In this document: positions 12,701 to 61,006 of the stretch, one piece after another
Layout: the number at the start of each line of letters is the position of its first letter
How positions within the stretch are numbered: position 1 is the first letter of the stretch
Made by a program: the position numbers and the translations under genes
Assembly: GCA_030390025.1 (NCBI GenBank)
Contig: CM059431.1
Coordinates: forward strand, 101,806,001-101,870,000
Direction of reading: 5' to 3'
From: Squalus acanthias
Taxonomy: Eukaryota
DNA length: 64,000 bases
The notes under the pieces: generated by a model
The model's input: the letters and a program-made list of their open reading frames with translations, nothing else
The model's database searches: none
What the model was told of the DNA's origin: nothing

Positions 12701-15700
12701 AGTTCGTCTTTGCTGCTTTGCGGAACCTTGTCTACAAGGTACGAAAGTCACTTTATTTATTTTTTTGCCCCTCTCCTCTTAATAAGGTGTTTACTGCTTG
12801 CCGTTCCAGAAGATTATCTGCGTTTGCACAGAAACCCATTGCCGAGATATTTATTTTTCAGTTTCCATCCACGTTCTTCGAAGGCCGAGCCGATATGTGC
12901 GCCGCAATGTGCTATGAAATTTTGAAGTGTTGCAATTCTAAACTGAGCACAATCCGCAGTGACGCGTCTACGCTCCTTTATTTCTTAATGAGGAACAATT
13001 TTGAGTGGACACGAAGAAAATCCTTTGTGAGAACTCACCTGCAGGTCAGTGCCATCGAAGAAACTGCCTGAACGGGCGGTGGAAGCAGATTCAATAGTAA
13101 CTTTCAAAAGGGGAATTTGGATTTGTACTTGGAAAAAAAATTGCAGGGCGCAGAGGAGTGGGATTAATTGGATAGCTCTTTGTACTCCAAGGATTAAATT
13201 ACGAGGAGAGATTACACAAACTAGGGTTGTATTCCCTGGAATTTAGAAGGTTAAGGGGTGATCTGATCGAAGTTTTCAAGATATTAAGGGAACAGATGGG
13301 GTAGATAGAGAGAAACTATTTCCGCTGGTTGGGGAGTCTAGGACGAGGGGGCATAGTCTAAAAATTAGAGCCAGACCTTTCAGGAGTGAAATTGGGAAAC
13401 ACTTCTACACACAAAGGGTGGTAGAAGTTTGGAACTCTCTTCCCAAACGGCGATTGATGCTAGATCAATTGTTAATTTTAAATCTGAGATTGATAGCTTT
13501 CTGTTAACCAAAGGTATTAAGGGATATGGGCCAAAGGTGGGTAGATGGAGTTAGGTCGCAGATCAGCCCATGATCTCATTGACTGGTGGAACAGGCCCGA
13601 GGGGCTGAATGGCCTCCTCCTGCTCCTATGTTCTTTCAAAGAGCCGGCACAGGCACAATGGGCCGAATTGCCTCCTTCTGTGCTGTATGATTCTATGATA
13701 AAATAAGCTAAATTTCCCACTGTTAAATTGACTGCTTTATTTTCAGTAAATGACAATCAAATACACAATTTCTACATTTTGTACATCTCCACAACAGGTT
13801 TTGCTGTAGCCGGGTATCTGACGGCCTCTGCCATTAGTTAGACTTGCACCCTTCAGCTCAGGATATTTTTTGCCCACTAAGTTGCTGAAAGCGCGAGCTG
13901 ATAACGTCGCAACGAGGGGAAACACGGGGCATCTGGGACCTGAGCGAGCAGGGCAAGCAACAGGGTATCTCCTCAACCAATGAGATTGAAGGAATGGGAA
14001 ATAAACAGCGGAGGGAGGGTGAATTAAAGGGGGTGAATTCAATGTCAAATCAGGTACAGAAAAAGAAAGCCTTGCATTTATACAGCGCCTTTCACGACTA
14101 TCGGACGTCCCAAAGCGCTTTACAGCCAATGAAGTACTTTTGAAATGTAGTCACTGTTGTAATGTAGGAAACGCGGCAGCCAATTTGTGCACAGCAAGCT
14201 CCCAGAAACAGCAATGTGATAATGACCGAATAATCTGTTTTTGTTATGTTGGTTGAGGGATAAATATTGGCCCAGGACACCGGGGAGAACTCCCCTGCTC
14301 TTCTTCGAAATAGTGCTGTGGGATCTTTTACGTCCACCTGAGGGGGCAGACGGGACCTCGGTTTAAAGTCTCATCTGAAAGACGGCACCTCTGACAGTGC
14401 AGCACTCCCTCAGCACTGTACTGGAGTGTCAGCCTAGATTTTGTGCTCGAGTCCCTGGAGTGGGACTATGAACCCACAACCTTCTGACTCAGAGGCGAGA
14501 GTGCTACCAACTGAGCCACTGGCTGACATCATGGAAGAGAAATAAAGAGATGGAAAGAATGATTGGATTGAGAGAGAAAGAAAAAAAACGATACAGAAAG
14601 GAAAAGTAACTACTGTATAAAAAAATTAAAAATTTGACATTTTTTTAAATCTCCCCGAAAAATTCAAAAACCTGAAGGGATGAGACTCCGCACTTGTAAT
14701 CGTTAATTTTCGGTGCGAGAGGTTAATTGGCAGTCATTAACATTAACCATGTTGTTAAGAGTCTCTTGTAATGACGAGACTTAACTTTCTGTGGCGAGTT
14801 TAATGGGCGAATACAGCAAGTTCCTTTAAAATATTCAGCGAGGCGAAGGGCGAGATGACGTTTGCGCGAAGTTACGACGGAGCGCCGTGACTCGGACAGC
14901 AACCTTCAGATATTTGCGTTTAACCGTGCGTCTGCCCCTGGCCTGGAGTTGCTGTGCCATTCACCCGTAAATAACGGCGAGCGCCACTAACCTCACCGTT
15001 ATTTTGACAGCCAATTCTGGCCCAATATTGTTCACGCTCGTCGTCTTCACCTGACTGTCCGACACCACATTAAGCAAGATCAGAGCCTGCATTTAGATAG
15101 CGCCTTTCACAGCCTCGGGATGTCTCGAAGGATTTTACAGCCAATGGATTACTTTTGAAGGCCAGTCCCCGTCGTTACATTGGGTCGATTGGGCTTATAC
15201 TCGCTGGAGTATAGAAGAATGAGAGGGGATCTCATCGAAACATATAAAATTCTGACAGGTCTGGACAAACTAGATGCAGGAAGGATGTTCCCGATGGTCG
15301 GGGAGTCCAGAACCAGGGGTCACAGTCTAAGGATAAGGGGTAAGCCATTTAGGACTGAGATGAGGAAGAATTTCTTCACCTAGAGAGTGGTGAACCTGTG
15401 GAATTCTCTACCACAGAAGTTAGTTGAGGCCAAGTCATTAAATATATTCAAGAATGAGTTAGATATATTTCATAAAGCTAAAGGTATCAAGGGATATGGG
15501 GAGAAGGCAGGTACAGGGTACTGAGTTTGGATGATCAGCCATGATCTCATCGAATGGCGGAGCAGGCTCGAGGGGCCGAATGGCCTACTCCTGCTCCTAT
15601 CTTCTATGTTTCTATAAGCAAATGTGGCAGCTAATTTACGCAAAGCAAGGTCCCACAAACCGACAAGACAAATGGCCAGTTCATCTATTGTTTGGTGGTG

Positions 15701-18700: not shown

Positions 18701-21700
18701 AAAAGTAGGGAAGTTTTGATGCAACTGTACAGGGCGCTGGTGAGACCGCACCTGGAGTACTGCGTACAGTTTTGGTCTCCATATTTAAGGAAGGATATAC
18801 TTGCATTGGAGGCAGTGCAGAGAAGGTTCACTAGGTTGATTCCTGGGATGAAGGGGTTGACGTATGACGAAAGGTTGAGCAGGTTGGGCCGATACTCATT
18901 GGAGTTTAGAAGAATGAGAGGTGATCTTACTGAAACATATAAGATTCTGAGGGGGACTGACAGGGTAGATGCTGAGAGAATGTTTCCCCTCGTGGGGGAA
19001 TCTAGAACTAGGGGGCATAGTTTGAGAATAAGGGGTCGCCCATTTAAAACGGAGATGAGGAGGAATTTCTTCTCTCAGAGGGTCGTGAATCTTTGGAATT
19101 CTCTACCCCAGAGAGCTGTGGAGGCGGAGTCATTGAATATATTCAAGGCGGAGATTGACAGACATTTGAATTACAAGGGAGTCGAGGGTATGGGGAGAGA
19201 GCGGGAAAGTGGTGTTGAGGCCAAGATTGGATCAGCCATGATATTGAATGGCGGAGCAGGCTCGAGGGGCCAATTGGCCGACTCCTGCTCCTGTTTCTTA
19301 TGTTCTTATTCCCACGATAAAAGCTAAATCTTGTGACGCTGCAGCAATGAAGTAATTTAAAATGAATGAAAGGCAGTCTGTTTTCTGATTGGAGGACCGG
19401 GCCCGCGGGATCCCGCGTAGGCTTCCGCACGGGCTGCGCCCCTGGGATCCGTGGGCCGTCGCACTGCCCCCCTCTCCTCGGAGCGTCGGAGCGCAGGTTT
19501 ACGCAGGAGGGCCGCCGTCGGCTAGTCGCGTATTCTTTTCGCGGGTCCGTGGCGCACTCCGGAGCTACGCCGCCGACCGCAATTTCTGGGCCAGTAATTT
19601 GAGCAACGTGGCTAAATGGGAATTGACTGCTCATGTGAGGGGCATCGGATCATTTGAACTAAGAGGAATAGGCTGCCCCCGTCATATAATCGGACTGCAA
19701 GAGCTTGACGTTGGGTGCCTGAAATTTGAAAGCGCTTCAGATCCTAACTCCACCACTCAATGAGCTGCAGAAGACCGCGGCCGAGAAATTCGCCTCCGGC
19801 GGTGGCGCAGAACGGGCGGTATCGGATCCGCGGCCCGTTACACGCACCACCTGATGCTCAGTTCCGTTGACGGGCGGCCAACCCGATCCGATCCGCTACC
19901 GCCCGTTCTATGTCACCGCTCCAGACCAATTTCTGGGCCCATGTGGTGATTTAGTTCAGGAGGAGATGGTGAAACTTTTCAGAAACTCAGTACGAATAAA
20001 TGAATCTTTAAACCTGTTGTTATAACATCTGCAGCAAATGTCAGGGTGCGGTAGCATAGCGGTTAGGGTACTGGACTAGTGATCCGGAGACGTGAGTTCA
20101 AATCCCACCACGGCAGCTGGGGAATTTAAATTCAATTAAATAAATCTGGAATAAAAAGCACTTAGTTTTACACTTCGCAATATCCAACTATTCGAGGGGT
20201 ACAGTCACATAGTGGTTATGTTACTGGACTAATAATCCAAAATTAAATTCAGTTAATTAAATAAATCTGGAATAAAAAGCTAGTATCAGTAAAGGTGACC
20301 ATGAAACTGTCGTAAAAACCCATCTGGTTCACTGATGTCCTTCAGGGAAGGAAATCTGCCGCCTTTACCCGGTCTGGCCGATATGTGACTCCAGACCCAC
20401 AGCAATGTGGTTGATTCTTAACTGCCCTCTGAAACGGCCGAGCGAGACACTCAGTTGTACCAAACTGCTACGACAAAGTCACCGTGGGAGCACCTTCACC
20501 ACACGGACCGCAGCGGTTCAAGAAGGCGGCTCACCACCACCTTCTCAGGGCAATTAGGGGGGGGCAATAAATGCTGGCCCTTGCCAGCGACGCCCACAAA
20601 TAAAATAAAATCAGACTTTTGTCAAATTGGCAGTGACCGTTCAAACAAGTTATGTTGACCAGAACATTTTTTAGCACTTTCTCTCTCAATATTACCAGAA
20701 GTAACGTGTTGGATTTAAATATCACAAGTCTTGGAACGATTCCAGTGCAATGGTGAGAAAGCGGAACCCACTGCCACATGGAATGGCTGAGGCAGATCAC
20801 GTAGATGCATTTAAAAGAAAGACTTGCAATTGTATAGCACCTTTCACGACCTTCGGATATCCCAAAGTGCTTTACAGCCAATGAAGTACTTTTGAAGTGT
20901 AGTCACTGTTGTAATGTAGAAAACGCAACAGCCAATTTGCGCACAGCAAGCTCCCACAAACAGCAATGTGATAATGACCAGATCATCTGTTTTTAGTGAT
21001 GTTGGTTGAGGGATAAATATTGGCCCCAGGACACCGGGGAGAACTCCCCCTGTTATACTCCCCACTTAAAGGAAGAGCTAGATAAACACACGAGGGGGAA
21101 AGCAATAGAAGGATACGCTGATAGGGTGAGATGAAGAGGGGTGGAGGAGGCTCGTGTGGAGCATAAACACTGGCATTGACCAGATGGGCCGAATGGCCTG
21201 TTTCTGTGCTGTAAACTCTATGCAATAAGAGCATTGGAAAATAGCTTTGTGTAATTTTTTTTTTGTTTGCGGTCTAAGTGATTGTATTGGTTTCTGCAGG
21301 TAATCATCGCAGTAAGCCAATTAATAGCGGATGTGGTTGGAATTGGAGGGACAAGATTCCAGCAATCACTGGCTATTATTAACAATTGTGCCAATAGTGA
21401 CAAAGCTGTAAAGGTGAGCAACCTATGATTGTTTAGTTGTTCGATCGATGATCAATTGTTGCCTTTTTTTCTGTGTGTGTGTGTGTATTCTTGCAGCACA
21501 CTCTTTTTCTTCGACGGCTGTGGTCGGTTCCCATTGGCACCAAGTGTCTTCCTGTACCCAGGTTGCCATTCAGTGGGTGCGAGCTCTCTACCACCCAGAG
21601 TGTGTACCATCTACAAGATGCACTGCAGCAACTCGCCAAGGCTTCTTCGGCAACACCTCCCAAACCCGCACCCTCTACCATCTAGAAGGACAAGGGCAGC

Positions 21701-22831
21701 AGGCGCATGGGAACACCACCACCTCCAAGTTCCCCTCTAAGTCACACACCATCCTGACTTGGAAATATATCGGCCGTTCCTTTATCGTCGCTGGGTCAAA
21801 ATCCTGGAACTCCCTCCCTAACAGCACTGTACGAGCACCTTCACCACACGGACTGCAGCGGTTCAAGAAGGCGGCTCACCACCACCTTCTCGAGGGCAAC
21901 TAGGGATGGGCAATAAATGCTGGCCTTGCTGGTGACTCCCACATCCTAGGAACGAATAATATTTTTAAAAAGAGCTGAGACTGGAGCTCAGTCCCGTCCT
22001 GCCCCCCCACACCCACCCCCCAACGCATGCACTTTGCAGCAAGACCCAATGAACGGCGATCAGGGGAAACAATACTGGCTGATTTTGTTTTTATTGCACA
22101 ATTACCCCCCCACCCCCCAACCCCAACCAGAAAAAGGCTCTGGGGTCTGAGGTCAATTGCTGTCACTATTATTTCAGTATTGGTCGAGCAAAATGCACCG
22201 TTCATTTTTGTCCGATCAATGGCTCGTTGTAAATATCTTCTTTTGCCACACTCGCTTGTTGTATTCATTGAACGTTAAATGAGGAATCTAATATTCTTCT
22301 GGGCTTCCGTTGCTGTTAGCGTACAGACACTTGGAAGCGCAGTCCCCAACACGTGCGCCCTTTCCGCTTATCCAGAACACTCGCCTGTACTGGGCGAACA
22401 GTGACTGCTGCCAACAAACAGACTGGAAGCTACCCAGAAGCGTTCTGCTCATAAATGTTAACGTTAACCAATTCAACTTGTAATTTTTATTTTCTTCAGT
22501 TCGGCAGCAGCAGCGACCTCTCTTCCCCCACCCCCCTCCCCTCCTTTATCTCTCGGCTCAGTTCGGCAGCGCATAAATGTTATTTCAGCTTTTAATTTTT
22601 ATTTTCTTCTCCTGGCGCGGTTCAGTTCAGCAGCAGCAATCAGACTTTAAATTTTTATCTTCTTGAGTTCGGCCGCAGCAATCTCTCATCCCCACCCCCT
22701 CCTCCCTCTCTCTCTCTCCCCTCCCCCTCCTCTCTCTCTCTCTCTCTCTCTCTCTCCTCCCTCCCTCTCTCTCCCCTCCCCTCCCCTCCTCCCTCTCTCT
22801 CTCTCTCTCTCCCCACCCCCTCCCCTCCCCT

Positions 22832-22915: not shown

Positions 22916-25058
22916 CCTCCATTCCCCTCCTCCCTCTCTCTCTCTCTCTCTCCCCTCCCCCTCCCCTCCTCTCTCTCTCACCAATCTGTGGGAGGTCCGC
23001 TGAGAACAACCAAACACCCACTGGAACGGCGCAGGCCCAACCACTTTATTTTGTTGGCAGCAGCCCCGTCCTTGGGCAAATGGCGCTGACCCTTTGACAT
23101 CACACGGGCGCCAATTACAAACCGTATTAAACGGGCCGACTATTTCAGGCAGTTCAGCACTTACCAACTTTTTAAAAGCCAATTTTGTTATGGCTGCATC
23201 TCGCTTTGCAACATAAACAGCGAGACAGGCCGGGCCAGAGAGAGCGAGACAGAGGCAGAACCAGAGAGAGAGAGAGACAGGCCGGGCCAGAGAGAGAAAG
23301 AGAGACAGGCCGGGCCAGAGAGAGAGAGAGAAAGACAGGCCGAGCCAGAGAGAGAGAGAGAGAGAGAGAGACAGGCCGGGCCAGAGAGAGAGAGAGACAG
23401 GCCGGGCCAGAGAGAGAGAGAGACAGGCCGGGCCAGAGAGAGAGAGAGACAGGCCGGGCCCAGAGAGAGAGAGAGACAGGCCGGGCCAGAGAGAGAGAGA
23501 GGGAGACAGGCCGGGCCAGAGAGAGAGAGAGGGAGACAGGCTGGGCCAGAGAGAGAGAGAGCGAGACAGGCCGGGCCAGAGAGAGAGAGAGCGAGACAGG
23601 CCGGGCCAGAAAGAGAGAGAGAGAGACAGGCCGGGCCAGAGAGAGAGAGAGAGAGACAGGCCGGGCCAGAGAGAGAGAGAGACCGGCCGGGCCAGAGAGA
23701 GAGAGAGACAGGCTGGGCCAGAGAGAGAGAGAGACAGGCCGGGCCAGAGAGAGAGAGAGACAGGCCGGGCCAGAGAGAGAGAGAGAGAGGCCAGGCCAGA
23801 GAGAGAGAGAGAGAGGCCAGGCCGGGCCCAGAGAGAGAGAGAGAGAGGCCAGGCCAGAGAGAGAGAGAGACAGGCCGGGCCAGAGAGAGAGAGGCCAGGC
23901 CGGGCCCAGAGAGAGAGAGAGAGAGGCCAGGCCAGAGAGAGAGAGAGACAGGCCGGGCCAGAGAGAGACAGGGCCAGGCCAGAGACAGAGAGAGAGACAG
24001 GCCGGGCCCAGAGAGAGTCAGAGAGAGACAGGCCGGGCCCAGAGAGAGAGAGAGAGACAGGCCGGGCCAGAGAGAGCGACAGGGAGAGGCCGGGCCAGAG
24101 AGAGAGAGAGAGAGAGGCCGGGCCAGAGCGAAGCACAAATAGAATCCAGACATGGTAGCAGAGGTTGAAGCTGCCCAAAGTTTCCACTGCCTCCTGTGGT
24201 TGTTAACAGTGCCAACAGCTGATGGGGGCTCTGGGCAGCTACAGTCAGCTGTTCCCACTGTTAACTACGGGAGGCAGTTCGAAAAGTGCAGCCCCGCCAC
24301 CTTCAGTCACCCCCACCCCCATCCCCGGGGCCTCAAACCCCCGCCAGCCATTCTCGTCAGCTTGTTGAATCCCCACCTCTAAACAAGAAGTTCTTGATTG
24401 CACCGGCCACTGCGTATAGCGGGCGAATCGCGTTGACACCGCGGTGCGGGCGATGTTTATATATTTACCTGAAAGAGGAGACTTGGTAAAACTATGCGAC
24501 AAAGTGATGTTCCAAGTGCCTCTTCCATTGCAGGCCACTGGATTCCCTTCCGAGGTGAAAGACTTAACAAAGCGTATTCGCACAGTACTGATGGCTACGG
24601 CCCAAATGAAAGAGCATGACAATGATCCGGAAATGCTTGTGGATCTTCAGTACAGCCTGGCAAAGTCCTACGCTAGCACTCCGGAGCTGAGGAAAACCTG
24701 GCTGGACAGCATGGCAAAAATCCACGTCAAACATGGCGATCTGTCCGAGGTAATTTAACAAGACCATCATCCTCTTGTTTGAAGGAAGAAAGAACTTGCA
24801 TTTATATAGCGCCTTTCACAACCTCAGGAAGTCCCAACGCACTTTACAGCCAATTAAGTACTTTTGAAGTTCAGGAAACGCAGCAGCCAATCTGCGCACA
24901 GCAAGCTCCCACAAACAGCAACGTGATAATGACCAGATAATCTAGTTTTTTTTAGTATTGTTGATTGAAGGATAAATATTGGCCCAAGGCACCGGGGATA
25001 ACTCTTCTTCAAAATAGTGGCCGTGGGATCGTTTACATACACCTGAGGGCAGACGGGG

Positions 25059-25089
<31 letters not shown>

Positions 25090-28000
25090 ACCTCAGACAG
25101 TGCGGCACTCCCTCAGTACTGCCCCTCCGACAGTGGAGCACTCCCTCAGTACTGCCCCTCCGACAGTGCGGCGCTCCCTCAGTACTGCCCCTCCGACAGT
25201 GCAGGCGCTCCCTCAGTACTGCTCCTCCGACAGTGGAGCACTCCCTCAGTACTGCCCCTCCGACAGTGCAGCGCTCCCTCAGTACTGCCCCTCCGACAGT
25301 GCGGCGCTCCCTCAGTACTGCTCCTCCGACAGTGCAGCACTCCCTCAGTACTGCCCCTCCGACAGTGCGGCGCTCCCTCAGTACTGCCCCTCCGACAGTG
25401 CGGCGCTCCCTCAGTACTGTCCCTCCGACAGTGCGGCGCTCGCTCAGTACTGCCCCTCCGACAGTGCGGCGCTCGCTCAGTACTGCCCCTCCGACAGTGG
25501 AGCACTCCCTCAGTACTGCCCCTCCGACAGTGCGGCGCTCCCTCAGTACTGCCCCTCTGACAGTGGAGCACTCCCTCAGTACTGCCCCTCCCACAGTACG
25601 GCGCTCCCTCAGTACTGCCCCTCCGACAGTGCGGCGCTCGCTCAGTACTGCCCCTCCGACAGTGCGGCGCTTGCTCAGTACTAGCACTGGGAGTGTCAGC
25701 CTAGATTTTTGTGCTCAAGTCTCTGGAGTGGGACTTGAACCCACAACCTTCTGACTCAGAGGTGAGGGCGCTGCCCACTGAGCCACTGGTGCTGTTCTAT
25801 CTCAGGTTGTTTCACACGCCCAGAAACTACTTTAAGAACCTGCTTAAGTTTGCAGACTTGAGCTTTCCAGCCTAACTGCGCAGTAAATTCCCATTAGCTC
25901 ATCGACAAAGTATGAGAGAAAATAGTGCGACACCGAGGCTTTGGTATTTTAAAGGGGGTGGGCGGGAATGGTGCGCGCGAGCCTCTAGATACGCGGTATC
26001 CCCGGGGAGTCCTGTGATGCGGAGGGGCCCAGCCGATCTCAACGGCCGATCGGCATTTGCATGATCGTTCCCGGGGTCCTGTGGGAACGGTCATCGAGGT
26101 CCTTCATCTCCAGCAAGCTGCCTGGGGTCGCCCAGTAGCTGTCTGCAGCTCGCCGATTTGATGCAATGAGGGCCAAAATGAGGTGCACATCAGGCCAATC
26201 GGTGAACAGAATTTCTCCCCTGAAGTGTGCGCAGAAGCATGACCTTTGATAAGTTACATATCTTTCCTAGTTATTGTTTGGAGACTGTTGCTCATTTTTA
26301 AGCACTTCAGCTCAATTGCAACTCATTATTTTGGCGTTATTCTTTCAGCCATATATTTTCCAAAACTTCATTTTAATTCAGGATTGGTAATTGCTCTCTT
26401 TTTCTTTTTGGTTTTCAGGCAGCCATGTGCTACGTCCATGTCGCAGCACTCGTGGCTGAATATCTCAAAAGGAAAGGTAAGGTGAACACATTGGTTGTGT
26501 TGAAAGACCATGGGTGTTTTGGTCAGGCAGTGTTGGTGCCTTACTGAAAGGAACGACTTGCATTTATATAGCGCCATTCACGACCTCGGGACGTCCCAAA
26601 GCGCTTTACAGCCAATGAAGTACTTTTTTGAAGTGCTGTCACTGTTGTAATGCAGGAAACACGGCAGCCAATTTGCGCACAGCAAGCTCCCACAAGCAGC
26701 GATGTGATATTCACCGGATAATCTGCTATAGTGATGTTGGTTGAGGGATAAATATTGGCCCCAGGACACTCCTTATTGAACTAGCGAACTACTTGCTGAT
26801 GCTGGTAACAGTCTCCACAGCTCATTCCGTCAGCGGTGGCCCGCAATTTTAAAATAAAACCTAACTGTTAATATACCTTTTAAAAGAACCGGCTGCTTGT
26901 GCATAAAGAGGTTTATGTCGTCTTCTGAAAATCAGTCATCCCTCTCGCTACCCATTTTTCGGTTGGTGTTGAATACCGCAGTGAATTTTGCCACCCAATG
27001 TTTGGGGAGAAGATCAGGTAGAACTTTATCTTTTCAAGGAACTCTAGCTTCCTGAAGAAATGTTCAGCAAACAGACAGTGCAGCGCTCCCTCAGTACTGC
27101 CCCTCCGACAGTGCGGAGCTCCCTCAGTACTGCCCCTCCGACAGTGCGGAGCTCCCTCAGTACTGCCCCTCCGACAGTGCGGAGCTCCCTCAGTACTGCC
27201 CCTCCGACAGTGCGGCGCTCCCTCAGTACTGCCCCTCCGACAGTGCAGCACTCCCTCAGTACTGCCCCTCTGACAGTGCAGCGCTCCCTCAGTACTGCCC
27301 CTCCGACAGTGCGGCGCTCCCTCAGTACCGCCCCTCCGACAGTGCGGCACTCCCTCAGTACTGCCCCTCCGACAGTGCGGCGCTCCCTCAGTACTGCCCC
27401 TCTGACAGTGCGGCACTCCCTCAGTACTGCCCCTCCGACAGTGCTGCGCTCCCTTAGTACTGCCCCTCCGACAGTGCAGCGTTCCCTCAGTACTGCCCCT
27501 CCGACAGTGCAGCGCTCCCTCAGCACTGCCCCTCCGACAGTGCTGCGCTCCCTTAGTACTGCCCCTCCGACAGTGCAGCGTTCCCTCAGTACTGCCCCTC
27601 CGACAGTGCAGCGCTCCCTCAGTACTGCCCCTCCGACAATGCAGCGCTCCCTCAGTACTGCCCCTCCGACAGTGCAGCCTTCCCACAGTATTGCCCCTCC
27701 GACAGTGCAGTGCTCCCTCAGTACCGCCCCTCCGACAGTGCAGCCTTCCCTCAGTACTGCCCCTCCGACAGTGCGGCGCTCCCTCAGTACTGCCCCTCCG
27801 ACTGTGCAGCGCCCCCTCAGTACTGCCCCTGCGACAGTGCAGCACTCCCTCAGTACTGCCCCTCCGACAGTGCAGCACTCCCTCAGTACTGCCCCTCCGA
27901 CTGTGCAGCGCCCCCTCAGTACCGCCCCTCCGACAGTGCAGCGCTCCCTCAGTACTGCCCCTCCGACTGTGCAGCGCCCCCTCAGTACTGCCCCTCCGAC

Positions 28001-31000
28001 AGTGCGGCGCTCCCTCAGTACTGCCCCTCCGACAGTGCGGCGCTCCCTCAGTACTGCCCCTCCGACAGTGCGGCGCTCCCTCAGTACTGCCCCTCCGACA
28101 GTGCAGCGCTCCCTCAGTACTGCCCCTCCGACAGTGCGGCGCTCCCTCAGTACTGCCCCTCCGACAGTGCGGCGCCCCCTCAGTACTGCCCCTCCGACAG
28201 TGCGGCGCCCCCTCAGTACTGCCCCATCCGACAGTGCGGCGCTCCCTCAGTCTGCCCTTGTGCTCAAGTCTCTGGAGTGGGACGTGAACCTCGCAACCTT
28301 GTGACTCGGAGGTGAGAGAGTGCTGCCGACTGAGCCACGGCCGACCCTCTGATTTATTAAGTGCATCTGAAGCTGAGGCATGAAACGGGGCTGAGACTCA
28401 AGTCCATCCATTGTTTGAGTATTTGGGGAAATCCACACCGAGTGTAAACAGGTCTCTCGTTTCAGGCGTTATCAGAAACTTTATTGGCCCTTGAGACCTG
28501 TAGCTTTTAATTAAATAAATCTAATCTGATTTCCTTTGAAAAAACCCCAGCCCCCAACAAATCATTGAGCGATGCACGTATTCTCAGACAGACTCCGGCT
28601 GGCACGAGTCTGCATGTAATCTGGTTGCTCGGTGTTGAATCAGTGAGGAGGTCAAAGGCGTCTACTGACGGAGTGCTGACTACCTCAGCAAAGTGCGAAT
28701 GCAGCAAAGTTGAAGTACAAAAGACACTGAACAAGGAAATATTTACCAGACCTGAACATTGTGTGCTGTGGCTCTCGGACGCGAGAACCTGCACATGCGG
28801 ATGGAGACTTCTCTGCAGTTGGAAAAATAAAATTAGAGAGCTTCAATTTTGATTATTTTTTTACCAACGAAGGTATATCACCTTTTCTGTTCCTAGACAT
28901 AGAACATAGGAGCCTCGCGGTGGTCTGTAAAGTTCCATTTAGATTGCCTCCCTCCTGTCCAAGCTGTTGTAACCAATGATGTGTTTTTTCTTCAAGATTC
29001 TCGTCCCAATTTAGGCATGAAAAATTATAAGCTACTTGTCTCCCCCGCCCCCCCCCCCCCCCCCCCCCCAGGCCATTTCAGTGTGAGATCAGGAAGCACT
29101 TTCTCACGCAAATGGGTGGTGGAAATCTGCAACTTTCTCCGCGCCCCCCCGCCACACACACCACCGAAAGGCTGTAGATGCTGGAGGTGGTGGGGGGGGG
29201 GTCAATTAAAATTGACGAGGACGAAATTGATAGTTCTCGTTAGGTAATGGCATCACGCAGCATGAAGCAAAGGCGGTTCAATAGAACTGAGCTACAGATC
29301 AGCCATGATCTCATCGAATGGCGGGACGGGCGCGAGGGGCTGAACGGCCGCCTCCTGTTCCTGTGTCCCGTGCAATCTCCCTTCCTCAGATATTCCAAAA
29401 GCCAACCACCCTCTCGGTGTAATAATGTTTACTTGGCACCCTGCCTGAAACCACAAATTATATTTTGAGTCCCTTTGTTTTGCTGACATGTATCAAATCA
29501 AATTCCCTGATTAATCCTCTATATTCCCGAGCCTTATTAATTTGAATACTTCCATCATGTTCCCTGCAGTCTTCACTTTTTATAATACAACGTTCGGACA
29601 TCTCTTGTTATTCACCAGTTGCTTCCCACAGATTGATTGGCCCTTTCGGAGCTCCACAAAACGCCAATCTTGCTCATCTACCGTTTTTCATGACATCATT
29701 AAGACAACTTCAAAGAATTTGCTTTGGAAACAGCCAGATTTTGACCTGTTTGCCTCTCTGCTGCCATCAATCACTGATAAAACAAAATGGTGCGGTGTGT
29801 GCAAAGTTTGTGACATAGCACACGCTGTTTTGTATCAGCCGTGGCTCAGTGGGTAGCACAATCCCAGTGCAGTGCTGAGGGAGCGCCGCACTGTCGATGG
29901 GGCAATACTGAGGGAGCGCCGCACTGTCGGAGGGGCAATACTGAGGGAGCGCCGCACTGTCGGAGGGGCAGTACTGAGGGAGCGCCGCACTGTCGGAGGG
30001 GCGGTACTGAGGGAGCGCCGCACTGTCGGAGGGGCAGTACTGAGGGAGCGCCGCACTGTCGGAGGGGCAGTACTGAGGGAGCGCCGCACTGTCGGAGGGG
30101 GCAGTGCTGAGGGAGCGCCGCACTGTCGGAGGGGGCAGTACTGAGGGAGCGCCGCACTGTCGGAGGGGGCAGTACTGAGGGAGCGCCGCACTGTCGGAGG
30201 GGCAGTACTGAGGGAGCGCCGCACTGTCGGAGGGGCAATACTGAGGGAGCGCCGCACTGTCGGAGGGGCAGTACTGAGGGAGCGCCGCACTGTCGGAGGG
30301 GCAATACTGAGGGAGCGCCGCACTGTCGGAGGGGCAGTACTGAGGGAGCGCCGCACTGTCGGAGGGGCAGTACTGAGGGAGCGCCGCACTGTCGGAGGGG
30401 CAGTACTGAGGGAGCGCCGCACTGTCGGAGGGGCAGTGCTGAGGGTGCGCCGCACTGTCGGAGGGGCAGTGCTGAGGGAGCGCCGCACTGTCGGAGGGGC
30501 AGTACTGAGGGAGCGCCGCACTGTCGGAGGGTGCAGTACTGAGGGAGCGCCGCACTGTCGGAGGGGGCAGTACTGAGGGAGCGCCGCACTGTCGGAGGGG
30601 GCAGTACTGAGGGAGCGCCGCACTGTCGGAGGGGCAGTACTGAGGGAGCGCCGCACTGTCGCAGGTGCCGTCTTTCAGATGAGACGTTAAACCGAGGCCC
30701 CGACTGCCCCTCTCAGGTGGACGTAAAAGATCCCACGGCCACTATTTCGAAGAAGAGCAGGGGAGTTCTACCCGGTGTCCTGGGGCCAATAATTATCCCT
30801 CAATCAACCTCATTATCACATTGCTGTTTGTGGGAGCTTGCTGTGCGCAAATTGGCTGCCGCGTTTCCTACATTACAACAGTGACCACACTTCAAAAAGC
30901 ACTTAATTGGTTGTAAAGCGCTTTGGGACGTCCTGAGGTCGTGAAAGGTGCTATAGAAATGCAGGTCTTTCTTTATTAAAAATGTGATCTTAGCTGCTGA

Positions 31001-34000
31001 CGTACAACAAGAAACGGTGTCGCTGTTTATCTGAAATTTTCTGAAACAAACACAGCCTGTGTAACCGGTAATCAGAACATTTTGTACAGGCATCCAAAAC
31101 TACTTCTGAATTGATAATACCCTAAGAAGAGAGAAACTGTTCCCATTGGCGGAAGGGTCGAGAACCAGAGGACACAGATTTAAGGTGATTGGCAGAAGAA
31201 CCAAAGGCGACATGAGGAAAAACTTTTTTACGCAGCGAGTGGTTGGGATCTGGAATGCGCTGCCTGAGAGGGTGGTGGAGGCAGACTCAATCACGGCTTT
31301 CAAAAGGGAATTGGATAAGTAGCTGAAGGAAAAAAATTCACAAGGGCTACGGGGAAAGGGCGGGGGAGTGGGACTAGCTGAGGTGCTCTTGCAGAGAGCC
31401 GGCACGGGCTCGACAGGCCGAATGGCCTCCTTCTGTGCTGTAACCATTCAATGAAAACAGTGTTGGTTAATTCAGTGAATGGAACTGCCCAACAATTTCC
31501 TGTTGCAGTTTTCCATGAGTATGGCATCTTTAATTTGCTGAGCTTTCCCTTATAACTAACGGAGTTGGTAAGCTTGAGGTCATTCAAAACTCTGCTGCCC
31601 GTGTCCTAACTCGCACCAAGTCCCGTTCACCCATCACCCCTGTGGTCGCTGACCTACATTGGCTCCCGGTCCGGCAACGCCTCGATTTAAAAAATTCTCA
31701 TCATTGTTTTCAAATCCCTCCATGGCCTCGCCCCTTCCTATCTCTGTAACCTCCTCCAGCGCTCCAACTCTCTGAGATCTCTGCACTCCTCCAATTCTGG
31801 CCTCCTGCGCATCCCCGATTTTCATCGCTCCACATTGGTGGCCGTGCCTTCAGTTGCCTGGGCCCTAAGCTCTGGAATTCCTTCCCTAAACCTCTCCGCC
31901 TCTCTCTCCTCCTTTAAGACGCTCCTTAAAACCTGCCTCTTTGACCAAGCTTTTGGTCACCTGTCCCTAATATCTCCTTCTGTGGCTTGGTGTCAAATTT
32001 TGTTTGATAATCGCTCCTGTGAACCAATTTGGGAGGTTTTACTGCGTTAATGGTGCTATATAAAAGCGACTTGTTGCTGTTATTTTTGTTGTTGTTGGTG
32101 CTAAGGTGTGGTTATCACATTTGTTGAATGCGAATTTCCGTCCAGATAAGAATGTGTTATCTGGTACACAGCCAGACTTACTGGAACAAGCAATATCATC
32201 CATTAGGTTAACAAAGTGATTTTCTAAACTTTCACCACTGGAACCTGGTTGAAATTCCCACTAAGACTAATTCCCTTCTTTCAGATTTATTTATTTATTT
32301 TTAATCCGCACCAAACAATATTTTGGACAAAATGGGCTCTGAAAACTATGAATTGTCTATTTCTGTACTGCTTTTATCCCTGTAGACTTGATAATTCTGT
32401 GATCTTTTCGAATTTCCAAGGGTGATACCAGAACTGAGAGGTTATAATGATCAGGAAAGATCGATCAGGCTGGGGGTCTTTTGTCCAGAAAACTGAAGAC
32501 TGAGGGGCGACCTGATAGAGGTCTTTAAAATTATGAAGGGGTTTGATAGGGTAGACGCAGAGAGAGTTTTTCCACTTGTGGGGGAGACCAAAACTAGGGC
32601 CCATCAATATAAGATAGTCACTAATAAATCCAATCGGGAATTCAGGAGAAACTTCTTTACCCAGAGAGTGGTGAGAATGTGGAACTCGCTACCACAGGGA
32701 GTGGTTGAGGCGAATAGCGTCGATGCATTTAAGGGAAAGCTCGATAAGCACATGAGGGAGACAGGAAAAGAAGGATATGCTGATGGGGTGGGATGAAGAG
32801 GGGTGGGAGGAGGCTCGTGTGGAGCATAAACACCAGCACGGACCAGTTGGGCCAAATGGCCTGTTCTGTGCCGTAAATTCCTCTAAGTCAGTAATACTCT
32901 TCAAAACAAAGAACGCGAGCAAAAGTAACTGATTGATTGTTTAATCTGTTGAAATGAATTTGTAGGAGAAGTGATTTAATATGACACTCTGTGGTATATC
33001 TTGCAGAAACTTGCCCATCTCTATAAAATTCATCAAGCTTACCAAAGAAAATTGCTGAGGTTACGTGGAACTTGCTATCACAGTGAGTGGTTGAGGCGAA
33101 TAGCGCAGATGTATAGAAAGAGAGAGCGCGATAAGTACACGAGGGAGAAAGGAATAGAAGGTTATGTCCAAAAGCAAAATACTGCGGAAGCTGGAAATCT
33201 GAAATAAAAAACAGAAAATGCTGGAAATACTCAGTAGGTCAGGCAGCATCTGTCGAGAGAGAAACAGAGTTAACGTTTCAGGTCGATGACCCTTCGTCAG
33301 AACTGGAAAAAGTTAGAGGTTTAACAGGTTTTTTAAGCAAGTGTAGGGGCAGGGAGAAGGGGGAGGGGAGGAAAGAACAAAAGGGAAGGTCTGTGATAGG
33401 GTGGAAGGCAGGAGTGATTAAGAGACAAAAGGGATGATGGTGCAAGGCAAAAGGAGATGGTAATGGGACAAGTTAAGAAAGAAAAGATGAGTCTTGATGA
33501 AGTGCATGTCTACCTGAGAGGGCAGGTGGCATCTTGAGTAGTCTAATCAGATTTGCAGGTCGCTCTGACCTTTCAGTTGCAGGAAGTGATGTAAGAAAAC
33601 TACTAGGCACTTGGTCTAAGCGTTAAACAAAGCTTTAATCAACTGTTTTCCAACATGGAGATCTAGTTGTGTCCTTCAGTAGTTCCTGTTAAAGAATGTC
33701 CTGAGCAAGCTGGGCCCATGCCCGAGTATTTATACTCTCCCTGGACAGCGCCACCAGCAGGCTGCCCAGTATTATTTCATAAGTCATTTCCACATGAATG
33801 ACAAGATTCATGTCCGGAAGTATAAATGATACCAAGAAGGGCAGTCTGGTAAATGCATCTTCATATTCCATTTGCCTCTTCCAGGTGTATTTAAACAAGG
33901 CTGCACAGCTTTTAAGGTGATCACGCCCAACATAGATGAGGAGGCAGCAATGATGGAGGATGTGGGAATGCAAGATGTCCACTACAATGAGGTGAGTTGA

Positions 34001-37000
34001 TCTGAGCGTTATCATAATCTGCAATTTTGCCCTTTCCTTACAATATTCAAACTCTGATGTTGGTGCTGTTCTTGCTGCATGTCTGCACTCAGTCCTGACC
34101 AAGACTGCCTTCGATCACTGCTTGGGCTCAACCGGCCACTTGCTTTGATGGAATCTTTATTCCTCGGTTCTTTTTTTTTACGTGATTGTCTGTTTTTTTT
34201 TGGGTGCGCAGCGCGGTCTCATAACGGGTCAAGAGAGTCGCGCTGACCAGGCGGGTATCTGGAGTTGGGTCGCAGATCAGCCGTGATCTCGTTGAATGGC
34301 GGAACAGGCTCGAGGGGCTGAACGGCCTCCTCCTGCTCCTGGGGTGGAAGCTTTATGCATGCTCCTCTGAGCAATAGTCTTCCACTTTATATTTAAGGAT
34401 AATAAGGTTCTGTGAAAGAAAGAAGGAACTTGCATTAGACAGCGCCTTTCACAACCTCAAGATGTCCCAAAGCGCTTTACAGCCAATGAAGGACTTTTTT
34501 TTTTGAAGTGTGGTCGCTGTTGTAATAGGGGAAACGCGGCAGCCAATTTACGCACAGCAAGCTCCCACAAACAGCAATGTGATAATGATCAGATGACGAT
34601 TTTTTTTTTTAGTCATGTGGGGTGAAGGAGAACTCCCCCACTCTTCGAAATAGTGGCCGCGGGATCTCTCACGTCCACCCGAGAGAGCAGACGGGGCCTC
34701 GGTTTAACGTCTCAGCCGAAAGACGGCACCTCCGACAGTGCAGCACTCCCTCGGCACGGGCCCTGGAATACCCTAGGGGTTGGCGCACTACAGCTCCAAT
34801 ACTCACGGGCGTAGTATCAGCCTAACTCATTATCAATAAGTGCAGAATATACGTTGTGAGCAAACTCCAGGGTGATAAGAATATACTGAAGTTGCAAATT
34901 TAGTTATCAACCATTTTAAAAACACAAATTGCCTCAGAGATGGACTCTTAACCTTTCCTCATTGAGCGACCACTAGTTAATCATTGATAGGATCACAGTC
35001 GACATAATTAAAATGCTGCTTGCTATAGAACATCTGTTTACACAGTTGTCCTGTCATGGGATTGTATTACTGATAATTAGCATTTTTGTTGTGCTTTAGT
35101 CATTGATATCTCCTGAGTCAGCTAAAGCAGCTCAAAAATACTTGACAATTTAAGACAAAAATAATGATGCATTCCATCTAATTTCCCTCCCTTATCCTGT
35201 CCTCAAAGCATTGACTTATCATCATTAACATTCTCATCCTTGTGTTCAAATCCCTCCATGGCCTCGCCCCCTCCCTATCTCTAGTGCAACGCTCTCCTGG
35301 CCGGCCTCCCACGTTCTACCCTATGTAAACTTGAGCTCATCCAATACTCTGCTGCCCCCGTGTCCTAACTCGCACCGAGTCCCGTTCGCCCATCACCCCC
35401 TGTGCTCGCTGACCGACATTGACTCCCGGTCCGGCAACGCCTCGATTTCAAAATTCTCATTCTGGTTTTCAAATCCCTCCATGGCCTCCTCGCCCCTCCC
35501 TATCTCTGTAACCTCCTCCAGCCCCCCCCCCACCAGATCTCTGCACTCCCCCAATTCAATTCTGGCCTCTTGCGCCTCCCCAATTTTCATCGTTCCACCA
35601 TTGGCGGCCGTACCTTCAGCTGTACTATTCCGTAGACTCGGGATGACTGCAGTCCGCCGAGTCCCGTGCCCGAGATGACTATTAAGCACTTCCCGTTGGC
35701 CACTGGGCGAGGACTGGGTCGGGTGTGTGATGGACTCCGCAGTCGGATAGCCTCTCACTTGACAGCATGATTCCCCACTGCCGTTCGGTGAATCACTCCC
35801 CACGATGAGTCACTGCTTTGAGGACGAGATAAAGGAGGAAAATTAGAGAGAATATATTTTTACTTTTTCTGAAATTGTCAAGTATTTTTGAGGTGATTAT
35901 AGCTCTATAAAAAGATATTTATCAACTAAATGCTGCCATCATTGTATTTCACTCTTGCTCAAGCTGTCTACTTTGTTTCTATCAGTTTGTATTCAATGTA
36001 AATCGATTTTAAAACATTTAAATTTTTTTTCCATATCACCTTTAATGGGGAAAAAGCAAAGGCTCCTAAGAAATGAACACTGAAAAATAGTAGGGTTACT
36101 GGAGGTGATTGGATGTGAGGACCTGTTTGACCCTAAGCTGAGCTTCTGACCCCATATCCTCGCCCATCACCAAAACCGGCTACTTCCACCTCCGTAGCAT
36201 CGCCCTTCTCTGTCCCCACCTCAGCTCATCTGCTGCTGAAACCCTCATTCACGCCATTGTTACCTCTGGACCCGACTATTCCAACGCTCTCCTGGCTGGC
36301 CTCCCACCTTGCCCCCTCTGTCAACTTGCACTCATTCAAACCTCTGCTGCCTGTATCCTAACTCACTCAAAATAGGGCTTCACGGGGGCGTTATTGGCCA
36401 AAATTTGACACCGAGCCGCATAAGGAGAAATTAGGACAGCTTGGTCAAAGAGGTAGCTTTTGAGGCGTGTCTTAAAGGAGGAGAGAGAGAGACGGAGAGG
36501 TTTAGGGAGGGAATTCCAGAGCTTAGGGCCCAGGCATCTGAAGGCACGGCCGCCAATAGTGGAGCGAAGAAAATTGGGGATGCGCAAGATGCCAGAATTG
36601 GAGGAGCGCAGAGATCTCGGAAGGTTGTAGGGCTGGAGGAGGCTACAGAGATAAGGAGGGGCGAGGCCATGGAGGAATTGGTCAACGGGACTTGGTGCGA
36701 GTTAGGACACGGGCAGCAGAGTATTGGATGAGCTCAAGTTTACGGAGGATGGAAGATGGGAGGCTGGCCAGGAGAGCGTTGGAATAGTTAAGTCTAGAGG
36801 TAGCAAAGGCATGGATGAGGGTTATGGCTTCACGAGTGGACGGAAGAAACTGGAAAAGCAAAAAGAAGGGGCGGAGGGGCAGGGAAATGTGAATATTTTA
36901 AAAGTCCTTCCTTCCATTTGATTTCCAATACAAAAGATGTTGATTGGTTTTGTATGGGGCATTACATAAGAACAGAACAAATAGGAGCAGGAGTAGGCCC

Positions 37001-46667: not shown

Positions 46668-49600
46668 TAGTGTATATGGATGGCAAGATTTAGGTACAAG
46701 AGGGCCGAGAAATCGGCGGAGAGAGGTGAAAAGGAGCTGAGATGGAGATTGAAATCACCCAGGATGAGGAGTCGCTCAGAGAGGATTTCCGGATGAGAAA
46801 TTTGGGGGAAGGACGGAGAGAACGAGGATTTCAAAGGAGAGGCGTGAGGGGTGGAAGAAAGCGAGATGCTCAAAGGAGGAGATGGTACCAGAGGAGTAGG
46901 GGGACAGACCAGGGTGTGATTTGGTGATGAGGGCCACACCAGCACTGGGGGAAGTTCGGGCAGGGCAGGTGGTGGAAAATATAGCCAGGCCGGGTGGCTT
47001 TCCCTTTCCTATTCTCTCTCCTTTTTCCACACTCCTCATTTTGATTATTTTTACAAAAGCAAAATACTGCCAGTCTTCAGCCAATTCGATTCACTCCACG
47101 TGATATCAAGAAACGGCTGAGCGCACTGGATGCAGCAAAGGCTATGGGCCCCGACAACATCCCGGCTATCGTGCTGAAGACTTGTGCTCCAGAACTAGCC
47201 GCGCCTCTAGCCAAGCTGTTCCAGTACAGCTACAACACTGGCATCTATCCGACAATGTGGAAAACTGCCCAGATATATCCTGTCCACAAAAACCAGGGCA
47301 AATCCAATCCGGCCAATTACCGCCCCATCAGCCTACTCTCAATCATCAGCAAAGTGATGGAAGATGTCATCGACAGTGCTATCAAGCGGCACTTACTCAC
47401 CAATAACCTGCTCACCGATGGTCAGTGTGTGTTCCGCTAAGACCACTCGGCTCCGACCTCATTACAGCCTTGGCCCAAACATGCACAAAGGAGCTGAATT
47501 CCAGAGGTGAGGTGAGAGTGACTGCCCTTGACATCAAGGCAGCATTTGACCGAGTGTGACATCAAAGAGCCCTCGTAAAACTGAAGTCAATGGGAATTGG
47601 GGAAATTTCTCCACTGGCTGGAGTCATACCTAGCACAAAGGAAGATGGCTGTGGTGGTTGGAGGTCAATCATCACAGCCCCAGGGCATCGCTGCAAGAGT
47701 TCCTCAGGGCAGTGTCCTAGGCCCAACCATCTTCAGCTGCTTCATCAATGGCCTTCCCTCCATTATAAGGTCAGAAGTGGAGATGTTCACTGATGACTGC
47801 AGTGTGTTCAGTGCCATTCGCAACTCCTCAGATAATGAAGCAGTCCATGCCTGCTGCAGCAAGACCTGGACGACATTCAGGCTTGGGCTGATACGTGGCA
47901 GGTAACATTCGCGCCATTCAAGTGCCAGGCAATGACTATCTCCAACAAGTGAGAGTCTAAATACCGCCCCTTGACATTCAACGGCATTACATCGCTGACT
48001 CACCCACCATCAACATCCTGGGGGGTCGCCATTGACCAGAAACTTAACTGGACCAGCCACATAAATACTGTGGCAACAAGAGCAGGTCAGAGGCTGGGTA
48101 TTCTGCGGCGAGTGTCTCACCTCCTGACACCCCAAAGCCTTTCCACCATCTACAAGGCACAAGTCAGGAATGTGATGGATACTCTCCACTTGCCTGGATG
48201 AGTGCAGCTCCAACAGCACTCAAAAAGTTTGACACCATCCAGGACAAAGCAGCCCGCTTGATTGGCACCCCATCCACCACCTTAAACATTCACTCCCTCC
48301 ACCACCGGCGTACCGTGGCTGCAGTGTGTACCATCTACAAGATGCACTGCAGCAACTCACCAAGGCTTCTTCGGCAGCACCTCCCAAACCCGCGACCTCT
48401 TCCACCTAGAAGGACAAGGGCAGCAGGAGCATGGGAACACCACCACCTCGAAGTTGCCCTCCAAGTCACACACCATCCTGACTTAGAAGTATATCGCCGA
48501 TCCTTCATCGTCGCTGGGTCAAAATCCTGGAACTCCCTCCCTAACAGCACTGTGAGAGCACCTTCACCACACGGACTGCAGCGGTTCAAGAAGGCGTCTC
48601 ACCACCACCTTCTCAAGGGCAATTAGGGATGGGCAATAAAATGCTGGCCTTGCCAGCGACACCCACATCCAAAGAACGAGTAAAAAGAATTAATATATTC
48701 TATGGGGGCAAAGTTCAGTTGCTTTGTGCCTCCTGTTAGCGCCCCCAAGGGTCCGTCAGCCCGACACTCCTCTTGCGTGCCGGGCTCTTTTGCCGGCACC
48801 CCGCTCTCTGGTGGTCCAGCAGGGCCCTGGCTCGCGCTGCGCTAGGCCCCTCCCCTTTAATAAAGGGCGGGAGGCCTGCAGTACCGCGGCGCGACGTGCT
48901 GGCGCGCATGGCGCCGCTGCACATAGCGCCGCAATATTGAACTAAAGCGCCCCAAGAGGGAGGGGGAGCGCTTCCAGTAGCGCCCCGCCTCCTGCTTGGG
49001 GCGCTACCATTCAATTTCGGGCGAGGGGGCGCTAAAATTAGCGCCCCGGCGAAGTTAGCGCCCCAAAGGGGACGCGACCGAATTTTTCCCCCTATACCTT
49101 TTCTCTCCTCATTTTTCAAAGTTCAAAATACTTTCTCTACCATTAGTAACTTGTGCTCTTGCCTCTGAAGTCAGAAGATGCAAGCTGCATTCCTGGATGT
49201 GAGCGACAGTAATGAGAGAGTGCTGCACTGACTGACCAGGCTGAGCGCCCATTCACTGGTGTCAATGGTTTAGGTGACCCAGCCACAAATTTAACTGGCC
49301 ATTGACCTCATTGCTGTGGTGGGATCGTGCTGTGTACAAGATGGCTGCCTGTACTGTGAAACGCTTTGGGACATGCCCGGGAGATGTGATGAGCTGCTAT
49401 AACCATGCACGTCTTCCCATAAGTCAGTGTTTGATGTGTTTTTAAAGCATTGGCAGCCCAATTGTATCTTGGCAATACAAGAATTCGCGCATTAAGGGTT
49501 AATGTCTTATTTATTCGTGTGCGTATTGCAGTTGGCGCAGTTTTAAAATGATCTGAGTAAAACAACATGGACTAGTTTTGTACAAGCATACATGGTGCAA

Positions 49601-60241: not shown

Positions 60242-60801
60242 CTTGCTGTATGCCGAACCTCCTCAGCAAATTTAGCTGGTGTTCCCTGTACTCAACTTGA
60301 GAGCGAATAAAAGTGGACCTTTTTCAACCCTTCTCCAATCCGTGCAGCACCCATTTCCCCAAACTCTTTGTTTCTGTCCATCAACCAATCTTCTAGCCAT
60401 GTTGCTGCATTTCCTCTGGTACCATGTGCCTGTATTTTTCTAACAAGCCTCCTCTGAGACACATTTAACAAATCCGTGCTGGCTCTCCTCGATAAGCCCA
60501 TGCTAAGAATGATGAAGAAGTGATATATACCAGGAGGGTGTGTGTGAAGGAAACTGTATTAGAGGATATTGAGGAGAGAGAATCACAAAATACATTTGCA
60601 ACTTGTTTCATCTCGATCCAGTCCAAGAATGTCTTGTGGAACTGCCCTTTTATTAAGTAAAACATGTGGAATGAAACTTGGTACCGCGAACAGCAAGAAC
60701 TTGGGACCTCAGGACGTCCCAAAGTGCTTTACAGCCAATGACGTGCAGTCGCTGTTGTAAGAATAATATGATCTATACACCAAACATCCTTTCTCAAGTC
60801 A

Positions 60802-61006
60802 AATGTGAGAAGTCGCACAACACCAGGTTATAGTCCAACAGCTTTATTTGAAATCACAAGCTTTCGGAGCGCTGCTCCTTCGTCAGCACTTCACCTGACA
60901 AAGGAGCAGCGCTCCGAAAGCTTGTGATTTCAAATAAAGCTGTTGGACTATAACCTGGTGTTGTGCGACTTCTCACATTTGTCCAACACCGGCATCTCCA
61001 CATCAA
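60802..61006. mobile_element. Young palindromic Penelope-type insertion (second family) with hammerhead motifs and 11-bp TSD
   Basis: 87-bp arms 60800-60886 and 60895-60981 with one mismatch; TSD ttctcaagtca at 60791-60801 and 61007-61017; ctgacgaaggagcagcgctccgaaagctt core. Confidence 0.85.

Follow-up and report, generated by a model that had tools for sequence, protein, structure and literature searches.

How did half a coding exon, still preceded by its splice acceptor, come to lie in another intron of its own gene, between two pieces of one retrotransposon family? The locus that raises this question is found in a 64,000-nucleotide stretch of contig CM059431.1 of Squalus acanthias (hereafter the window). 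The copied block, about 650 bases of retrotransposon tail, intron and half exon, occupies another DOCK9 intron 19 kb from its source, in the same gene and on the same strand.

Judged by the proteins that its exons encode, the host gene is an orthologue of DOCK9. The exon next to the donor site finds its best match among solved structures in human DOCK9 (E 2.7e-20, compared with 1.5e-08 for DOCK10) and is identical to two shark proteins, one of them named DOCK9-like; two shark proteins map 11-12 exons across the window. The true exon from which the fragment was copied, KLAHLY...FFGQ (52029-52142, plus strand), shows 95% and 90% identity to two shark DOCK9-type proteins. The copy itself is placed in a phase-1 intron between the exon at 26419-26476 (plus strand), which ends in phase 1, and that at 33885-33991 (plus strand), which was located by protein mapping. 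The donor exon lies three exons after the upstream one. The place of this host intron (26477-33884) is also that of an optional exon, about 23-27 residues long, in many DOCK9 proteins of tetrapods (12 distinct inserts among 120 matches); when 12 such peptides were compared with the host intron, only chance matches appeared (best E 0.074 among the matches listed). Elsewhere in the gene, the exons at 12601-12738 and 12862-13044 are only 123 bases apart, other introns here reaching up to 17 kb.

BLASTN and local alignment matched 32412-33063 with 51424-52086 at 85.4% identity over 669 columns. The non-repeat part alone, 32881-33063 against 51897-52086, is 77% identical over 196 columns (E 5e-39 by BLASTN within the 64-kb window); its alignment score of 223.5 was reached by none of 300 shuffles, the shuffle maximum being 56. 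This stretch of non-repeat intron and half exon, 174 to about 180 bases long, has a single other copy within the window. A 92% identical pair (21599-21959 and 48323-48683) was considered as a second gene-fragment copy and rejected, as it belongs to a repeat family with four more partial copies.

All parts of the structure lie on the plus strand. Segment A (32412-32678) is a 5′-truncated CR1-type LINE containing the last part of ORF2, segment B (32679-32779) is a CR1 part that recurs downstream as B′, and segment C (32780-32880) holds the ORF2 stop, the 3′ UTR and a degenerate CR1 tail. Segment D opens with a copy of the non-repeat intron end that precedes the donor exon (32881-33006, with the acceptor TTGCAG at 33001-33006) and closes with the first 57 bases of the KLAHLY exon (33007-33063), which match the start of 52029-52142 except for a 3-base deletion and a 2-base insertion. 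It is followed by B′ (33065-33166), a second CR1 piece cut at both ends and 83% identical to 32679-32779 and 80% to 51692-51792. At the donor site, a CR1 stub of about 500 bases (51404-51900, plus strand), which starts inside ORF2 and has no 5′ UTR, leads into the intron end and the first part of the true exon (51901-52086, plus strand, by window alignments). The 5′ ends of the two CR1 stubs fall within 20 bases of each other, 51404 versus the equivalent of 51424. The first-pass annotation had described the duplication of CR1 end, intron, acceptor and about 57 nucleotides of exon, the indels in the exon copy, and the return to a CR1 piece followed by another repeat, all of which these alignments bear out; its left end, given as 32420, has to be moved, since the alignment begins at 32412.

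The translation of the donor stub matches reverse transcriptase proteins, PF00078 being present on three of five matches, and the LINE family tail, as read in contig loose ends, is an 8-base repeat. From the end of the reverse transcriptase ORF and the 8-base tail we take the family to belong to the CR1 clade. A 36-base CR1 pattern had no match in viral contigs and none in metagenome contigs, which suggests that these contain no DNA of this animal. B′ is truncated by a high-copy repeat on the minus strand (33169-33493, right end approximate) that matches 7855-7608 and, to judge by its motif, is presumably of Penelope type. Position 33169 is a common end of that family, with 1269, 1332 and 1334 loose ends in three sequencing runs, and the 1.2 kb at 33167-34400 contain no CR1 3′ remainder after B′.

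Several other repeats in the window deserve mention in their own right. On the minus strand, 7972-7099 holds another CR1 piece of this subfamily, interrupted by a repeat of the type that truncates B′, which entered by the same repeat end; a CR1-like 3′ remainder follows at 7135-7099. Two such nestings in 64 kb may be due to chance given the copy numbers. A 33-base minisatellite forms four arrays of 18-40 copies with 91-96% matches (8767-10081, 25091-25682, 27074-28257 and 29869-30665), which occur in both orientations and are each apparently joined to the same dispersed repeat. Further tandem arrays consist of 22 copies of a 32-base unit (11116-11819) and about 30 copies of a 26-base AG-rich unit (23263-24128). 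Finally, 60800-60981 is a 182-base near-perfect palindrome (94.5%) without another copy in the window, and its arms resemble the end of a presumably Penelope-type repeat.

The two ends of the copied block were examined for traces of the process that made it. Homology stops on the left 20 bases inside the donor stub and on the right in the middle of the exon. Upstream of the CR1, homology was not significant: the gapped alignment score was reached by 11 of 300 shuffles, and the anchored comparison yielded a faint T-rich likeness with a score of 12, which 9.7% of 300 random windows reached (p ~0.10). Downstream homology was likewise not significant (scores reached by 115 and 138 of 300 shuffles), and no second copy of the neighbouring exon at 51139-51261 exists in the window. 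Non-repeat flank directly adjoins the left end, where there is no poly(A/T) tract, and the right junction reads GGTTAC/GTGGAAC, with neither a tail nor a poly(A/T) tract; no poly(A) signal, AATAAA or ATTAAA, was found in 250 bases of the donor. The donor end (GGTTAT) and the CR1 sequence before B (GAGAAT) share AT where the copy reads GGTTAC, so that microhomology at the right junction amounts to at most 1-2 bases, and only if one later substitution is allowed. A comparison of the left flank with three right-end stretches gave no direct repeat longer than 6 bases, and matches of 5-6 bases were at chance level. Target-site duplications of the CR1 clade peak at 3-5 bp according to the available part of one study (PMC4245944), and a duplication of that size could have decayed here. 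A circular intermediate, suggested by 8 bases in segment A that match the end of D, was rejected: the start of B′ lies about 230 bases beyond the point of the CR1 that such an intermediate would predict.

Having delimited the block, we asked which of its parts derive from the donor. Substitutions relative to the donor amount to 11.6% in A, 12.9% in B, 5.0% in C, 18.0% in the intron part of D (2 gaps) and 7.3% in its exon part (4 of 55 aligned bases, 2 gaps). An unrelated window copy at 62.2 kb differs by 9.3% from A (over 32453-32678), 13.9% from B and 8.7% from C. For A and B, the donor is thus no better a match than an unrelated copy, whereas for C it is: C differs by 5.0% from the donor, by 8.7-10% from four other window copies and by 17% from a fifth. 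At site 32785, copy and donor agree against five other rows; the letter at 32791 is private to the copy. CR1 majority letters were taken from sequencing-run contigs, with 40 of 196 difference rows listed, 19 of them in A-C. At these 19 sites, a selected subset, the donor shares none of the copy's non-majority letters, and five other window copies share 0 of 17, 2 of 16, 1 of 8, 1 of 5 and 1 of 7. B′ carries the copy's letter at three of the six sites that it covers, other window copies at none or one of those. If the allele shares are taken from runs X1 and X12, the probability of at least three shared letters out of six is 0.009-0.05; if they are taken from X8, it is 0.11-0.22; these values assume independence and are too kind, as the sites lie in a GA-rich stretch of uncertain alignment and are not independent. 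B and B′ are still 16% apart.

This pattern of site sharing leans, suggestively at most, towards a resident CR1 whose segment B was doubled around an imported C-D patch. The absence of sharing at the 19 sites also fits a copy of the whole block made soon after the donor CR1 had inserted, with a shared fraction below 15%, and the near-coincident 5′ ends of the stubs agree better with such a block copy than with separate insertion of the two. Divergence is higher in the copied intron than in the CR1 part (18.0% versus 10.4%, Fisher p 0.028), which no model considered here explains well.

To place the event in time, we compared contigs from four of 21 sequencing runs with the locus. Run X1 matched both flanks without a difference, over 396 and 313 bases. 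In organism B (run X8), one contig of depth 2 spans 32893-33221, across both the D-B′ and the B′-repeat junctions, and another covers the left junction; contigs of organism D (run X12) cover the left junction only. Because the organism B contigs span the junctions, the structure is not an assembly artefact and is older than the split from organism B: the event is old. The junction-spanning contig of organism B carries 28 substitutions in 329 bases, compared with 25 in 408 in the left flank. It shares the 3-base deletion in the exon piece, lacks a 4-base stretch at 32931 as the donor does, and has 2 extra bases at 33043, within the exon piece. The exon piece thus keeps taking indels, as neutral DNA does, and bears no sign of constraint outside its splice-site letters. 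None of the contigs listed for X1 and X12 lies over the copied exon piece and those of the RNA-like run X15 have only true-exon letters there, which is evidence neither way; B-B′ joints in the contig data stem from other CR1 copies and were left out. As a separate observation, exon position 33964 reads A for G in most of the depth in all four runs and the X1 contig of the locus has no difference; the A probably comes from a paralogous DOCK exon aligned at low stringency.

On balance we favour a DNA-level duplication made by repair with template switching, probably primed by CR1 homology, and regard this reading as probable, if modestly so. In its favour are the repair-like character of the ends, namely the stop in mid-exon, the missing tail and poly(A) signal, and the lack of direct repeats above 6 bases in the stretches compared, and the single extra copy in the window, in the same gene and on the same strand. 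The first-pass annotation had named template switching mediated by repeats, or ectopic repair, as its second option, and this option fits best. From the observed anatomy, the two ends and the presence in a second organism, we infer the direction, the mechanism and the order of events. A break or stalled fork at the 32.4-kb site would have been repaired from the 51.4-kb site, by a process of the SDSA or MMBIR type. In the version that we prefer, a CR1 was already resident at 32.4 kb; its broken end would have invaded the then near-identical CR1 at 51.4 kb, and synthesis would have passed beyond the CR1 tail to copy about 180 bases of adjoining intron and exon. Released in mid-exon, the nascent strand would have rejoined its own locus about 100 bases back, which would double segment B and give the order A-B-C-D-B′, before a later repeat insertion truncated B′. 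A simpler version, which we count as part of this reading, would have the whole A-D block copied beside a CR1 piece. Against repair stand the weak link between B and B′ and a distance of 19 kb, beyond the <5-kb group of duplications that Pace et al. classed with confidence; among the relatives, organism B has the filled site, and no empty one was seen.

Template switching during CR1 retrotransposition could produce much of the same anatomy. A CR1 RNA, B′ plus a tail since lost, would have been reverse transcribed first, followed by a jump in mid-exon to unspliced DOCK9 pre-mRNA and back through the intron and the CR1 stub, and the A-D-B′ unit would have been inserted at 32412. Such a chimera would have all parts on the sense strand and a left flank of non-repeat DNA, as found here. 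The host-derived D is fused 5′ of the truncated LINE B′ on the same strand, also in organism B, and host piece followed by CR1 is the order of known LINE chimeras; zero shared private sites would fit an event at about the time of the CR1 burst. This reading gives no reason, however, for B′ and the copy's own B to have minor variants in common (3 of 6). Its main hallmarks, the CR1 tail and the right-hand target-site duplication, are missing from view as well, B′ being cut by another repeat, and we consider it possible but doubtful.

Two further explanations appear less probable still. The block may be what is left of a larger intragenic duplication, segmental or tandem, that later lost its flanks to deletion or to repeats that overwrote them, with B′ as an unrelated insertion. 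The nearly coinciding CR1 5′ ends, the faint T-rich likeness just left of both stubs and the greater divergence of D than of any other part would suit this origin, but the flank homologies described above are not significant, the upstream one being heavily gapped, and the exon at 51139-51261 was not carried along; we regard it as unlikely. Classical 3′ transduction, the other option of the first-pass annotation, supposes that the donor CR1 gave a read-through transcript, that priming took place at the downstream end of this transcript, and that the product went in 19 kb upstream. The order of a CR1 3′ end and its own downstream flank is correct, and the left homology stops inside the CR1 instead of extending significantly into unique flank, so that transduction withstands the refutation that the annotation had proposed. 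The proposed source, by contrast, is a stub of some 500 bases that starts within ORF2 at 51404, with neither 5′ UTR nor promoter; the 3′ end lies in mid-exon without tail or poly(A) signal, the three right-end stretches gave no direct repeat longer than 6 bases, and B′ is left as a coincidence. In addition, priming in most LINEs other than L1 is held to depend on the element's own 3′ tail, according to the accessible part of a study in which LINEs other than the CR1 family seen here were tested (PMC3747384). No report of CR1 3′ transduction was found in the literature searched, which excludes most subscription papers, and the word "transduction" is absent from a 2026 survey of CR1 (PMC13343379). 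Taken together, transduction seems very unlikely at this locus.

A duplicated acceptor raises the question of splicing. The copied acceptor keeps TTGCAG and has 11 pyrimidines among the 17 positions from -20 to -4; the true acceptor has 13 there, and the gene's other acceptors, where listed, have 8-15. The first-pass annotation had described a decoy 3′ splice site without a donor. Its acceptor is indeed retained and the exon's own donor was not copied; a consensus candidate donor, ACA/GTGAGT at 33083, nevertheless lies 76 bases after the copied acceptor, inside B′. It is the only GTAAGT or GTGAGT among the 425 GT sites of 26490-33870, although by crude counts 67 of these sites fit the nine-base U1 consensus at least equally well. 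At this place, the LINE's other copies have GGGAGT. The candidate pseudoexon so defined (33007-33082, plus strand, 76 bases) contains a premature stop in the host reading phase: all four candidate exon ends read ETCPSL-stop, that is, a stop after six codons, and the donor's own letters would stop in this phase too. Hence in this species the piece can be only a poison exon, never a coding one.

Among the 15 listed of 1679 joints in one RNA-like run of contigs, which drop rare forms, no junction used the copied acceptor. We think it unlikely that inclusion of the half-exon would be detectable in RNA, and a regulatory role is highly improbable. Any splicing of it would yield a premature-stop exon at a low level, which nonsense-mediated decay would remove. 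One may picture a fuller history, in which a CR1 reverse transcriptase captured unspliced DOCK9 pre-mRNA and returned it to the gene of origin, one G-to-T substitution in the CR1 next to it provided the donor, and the 76-base premature-stop exon now tunes DOCK9 by nonsense-mediated decay in sharks of this group; we find this scarcely credible. The product is most likely a neutral, decaying relic. If RNA showed regulated inclusion of the 76 bases, however, the locus would exemplify a regulatory exon whose acceptor arose by duplication and whose donor came from a LINE.

As it stands, the locus matters little, being one more local copy of a gene fragment, of a class already described in other vertebrates; no report of this locus itself was found in the literature searched, which excludes most subscription papers. 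Even so, it illustrates clearly that CR1 copies, where they are dense in shark introns, can give rise to small duplications with splice signals in them. Should many CR1-D-CR1 structures turn up genome-wide, DNA repair and reverse-transcriptase jumps could be told apart in a CR1-rich genome.

Known systems provide several points of comparison. In L1 3′ transduction, a promoter-bearing source gives rise to an insertion with poly(A) and a short target-site duplication. Our locus resembles it in having a LINE 3′ end followed by its downstream flank, and differs in that none of these three features is seen and a LINE piece follows the flank. In the accessible parts of the literature on LINE chimeras, template switching is described for the L1, L2 and RTE clades, and a single U6-CR1 case, from turkey, has been resolved incompletely (PMC4476161). 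Like the U6/LINE chimeras (PMC4476161) and those of Magnaporthe (PMC2104539), the shark locus has a host-derived piece 5′ of a truncated LINE on the same strand. In the portions of those reports at hand, the partners are abundant small or non-coding RNAs or mRNAs, and tail and target-site duplication are kept, whereas the shark piece bears an intron, comes from the host gene itself and shows neither hallmark.

The likeness to DNA-level events is closer. Class 2 templated sequence insertions (PMC5110952) and the templated insertions attributed to FoSTeS/MMBIR (Gu et al., 2016, PMC5120786), as far as the available text of the two papers goes, are likewise patches copied from elsewhere without poly(A) or a short target-site duplication; those events are recent, human and have known empty sites, whereas the shark event is old and known from the filled site only. 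Pace, Sen, Batzer and Feschotte (2009, PMC2671141) described repair-mediated duplications that lie within transposable elements and have no poly(A); they were found in primates and in six further vertebrates, zebrafish and chicken among them, and sharks do not appear in the genomes listed in the accessible part of that paper. The same part defines them as inserts of 50 bp or more with one donor, and no more than one, elsewhere, the confident set having donors at <5 kb and more distant ones not being classed with confidence; 4 of 824 donors were partial exon/intron sequences, and 58 donors lay on the same chromosome beyond 5 kb. Two features set our locus apart from these duplications as reported there: the same CR1 family is present at both the donor and the acceptor junctions, and the apparent target duplication is about 100 bases long, compared with 4-21 in their table. 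In other respects it corresponds to them as the accessible text describes them, being the one extra copy in the window of nearby DNA, placed within a transposable element, without poly(A) and with a partial exon/intron donor; microhomology, which such duplications have at their ends, comes to at most 1-2 bases here. With its donor 19 kb away, the shark copy works like a member of their confident set and belongs to their more distant group.
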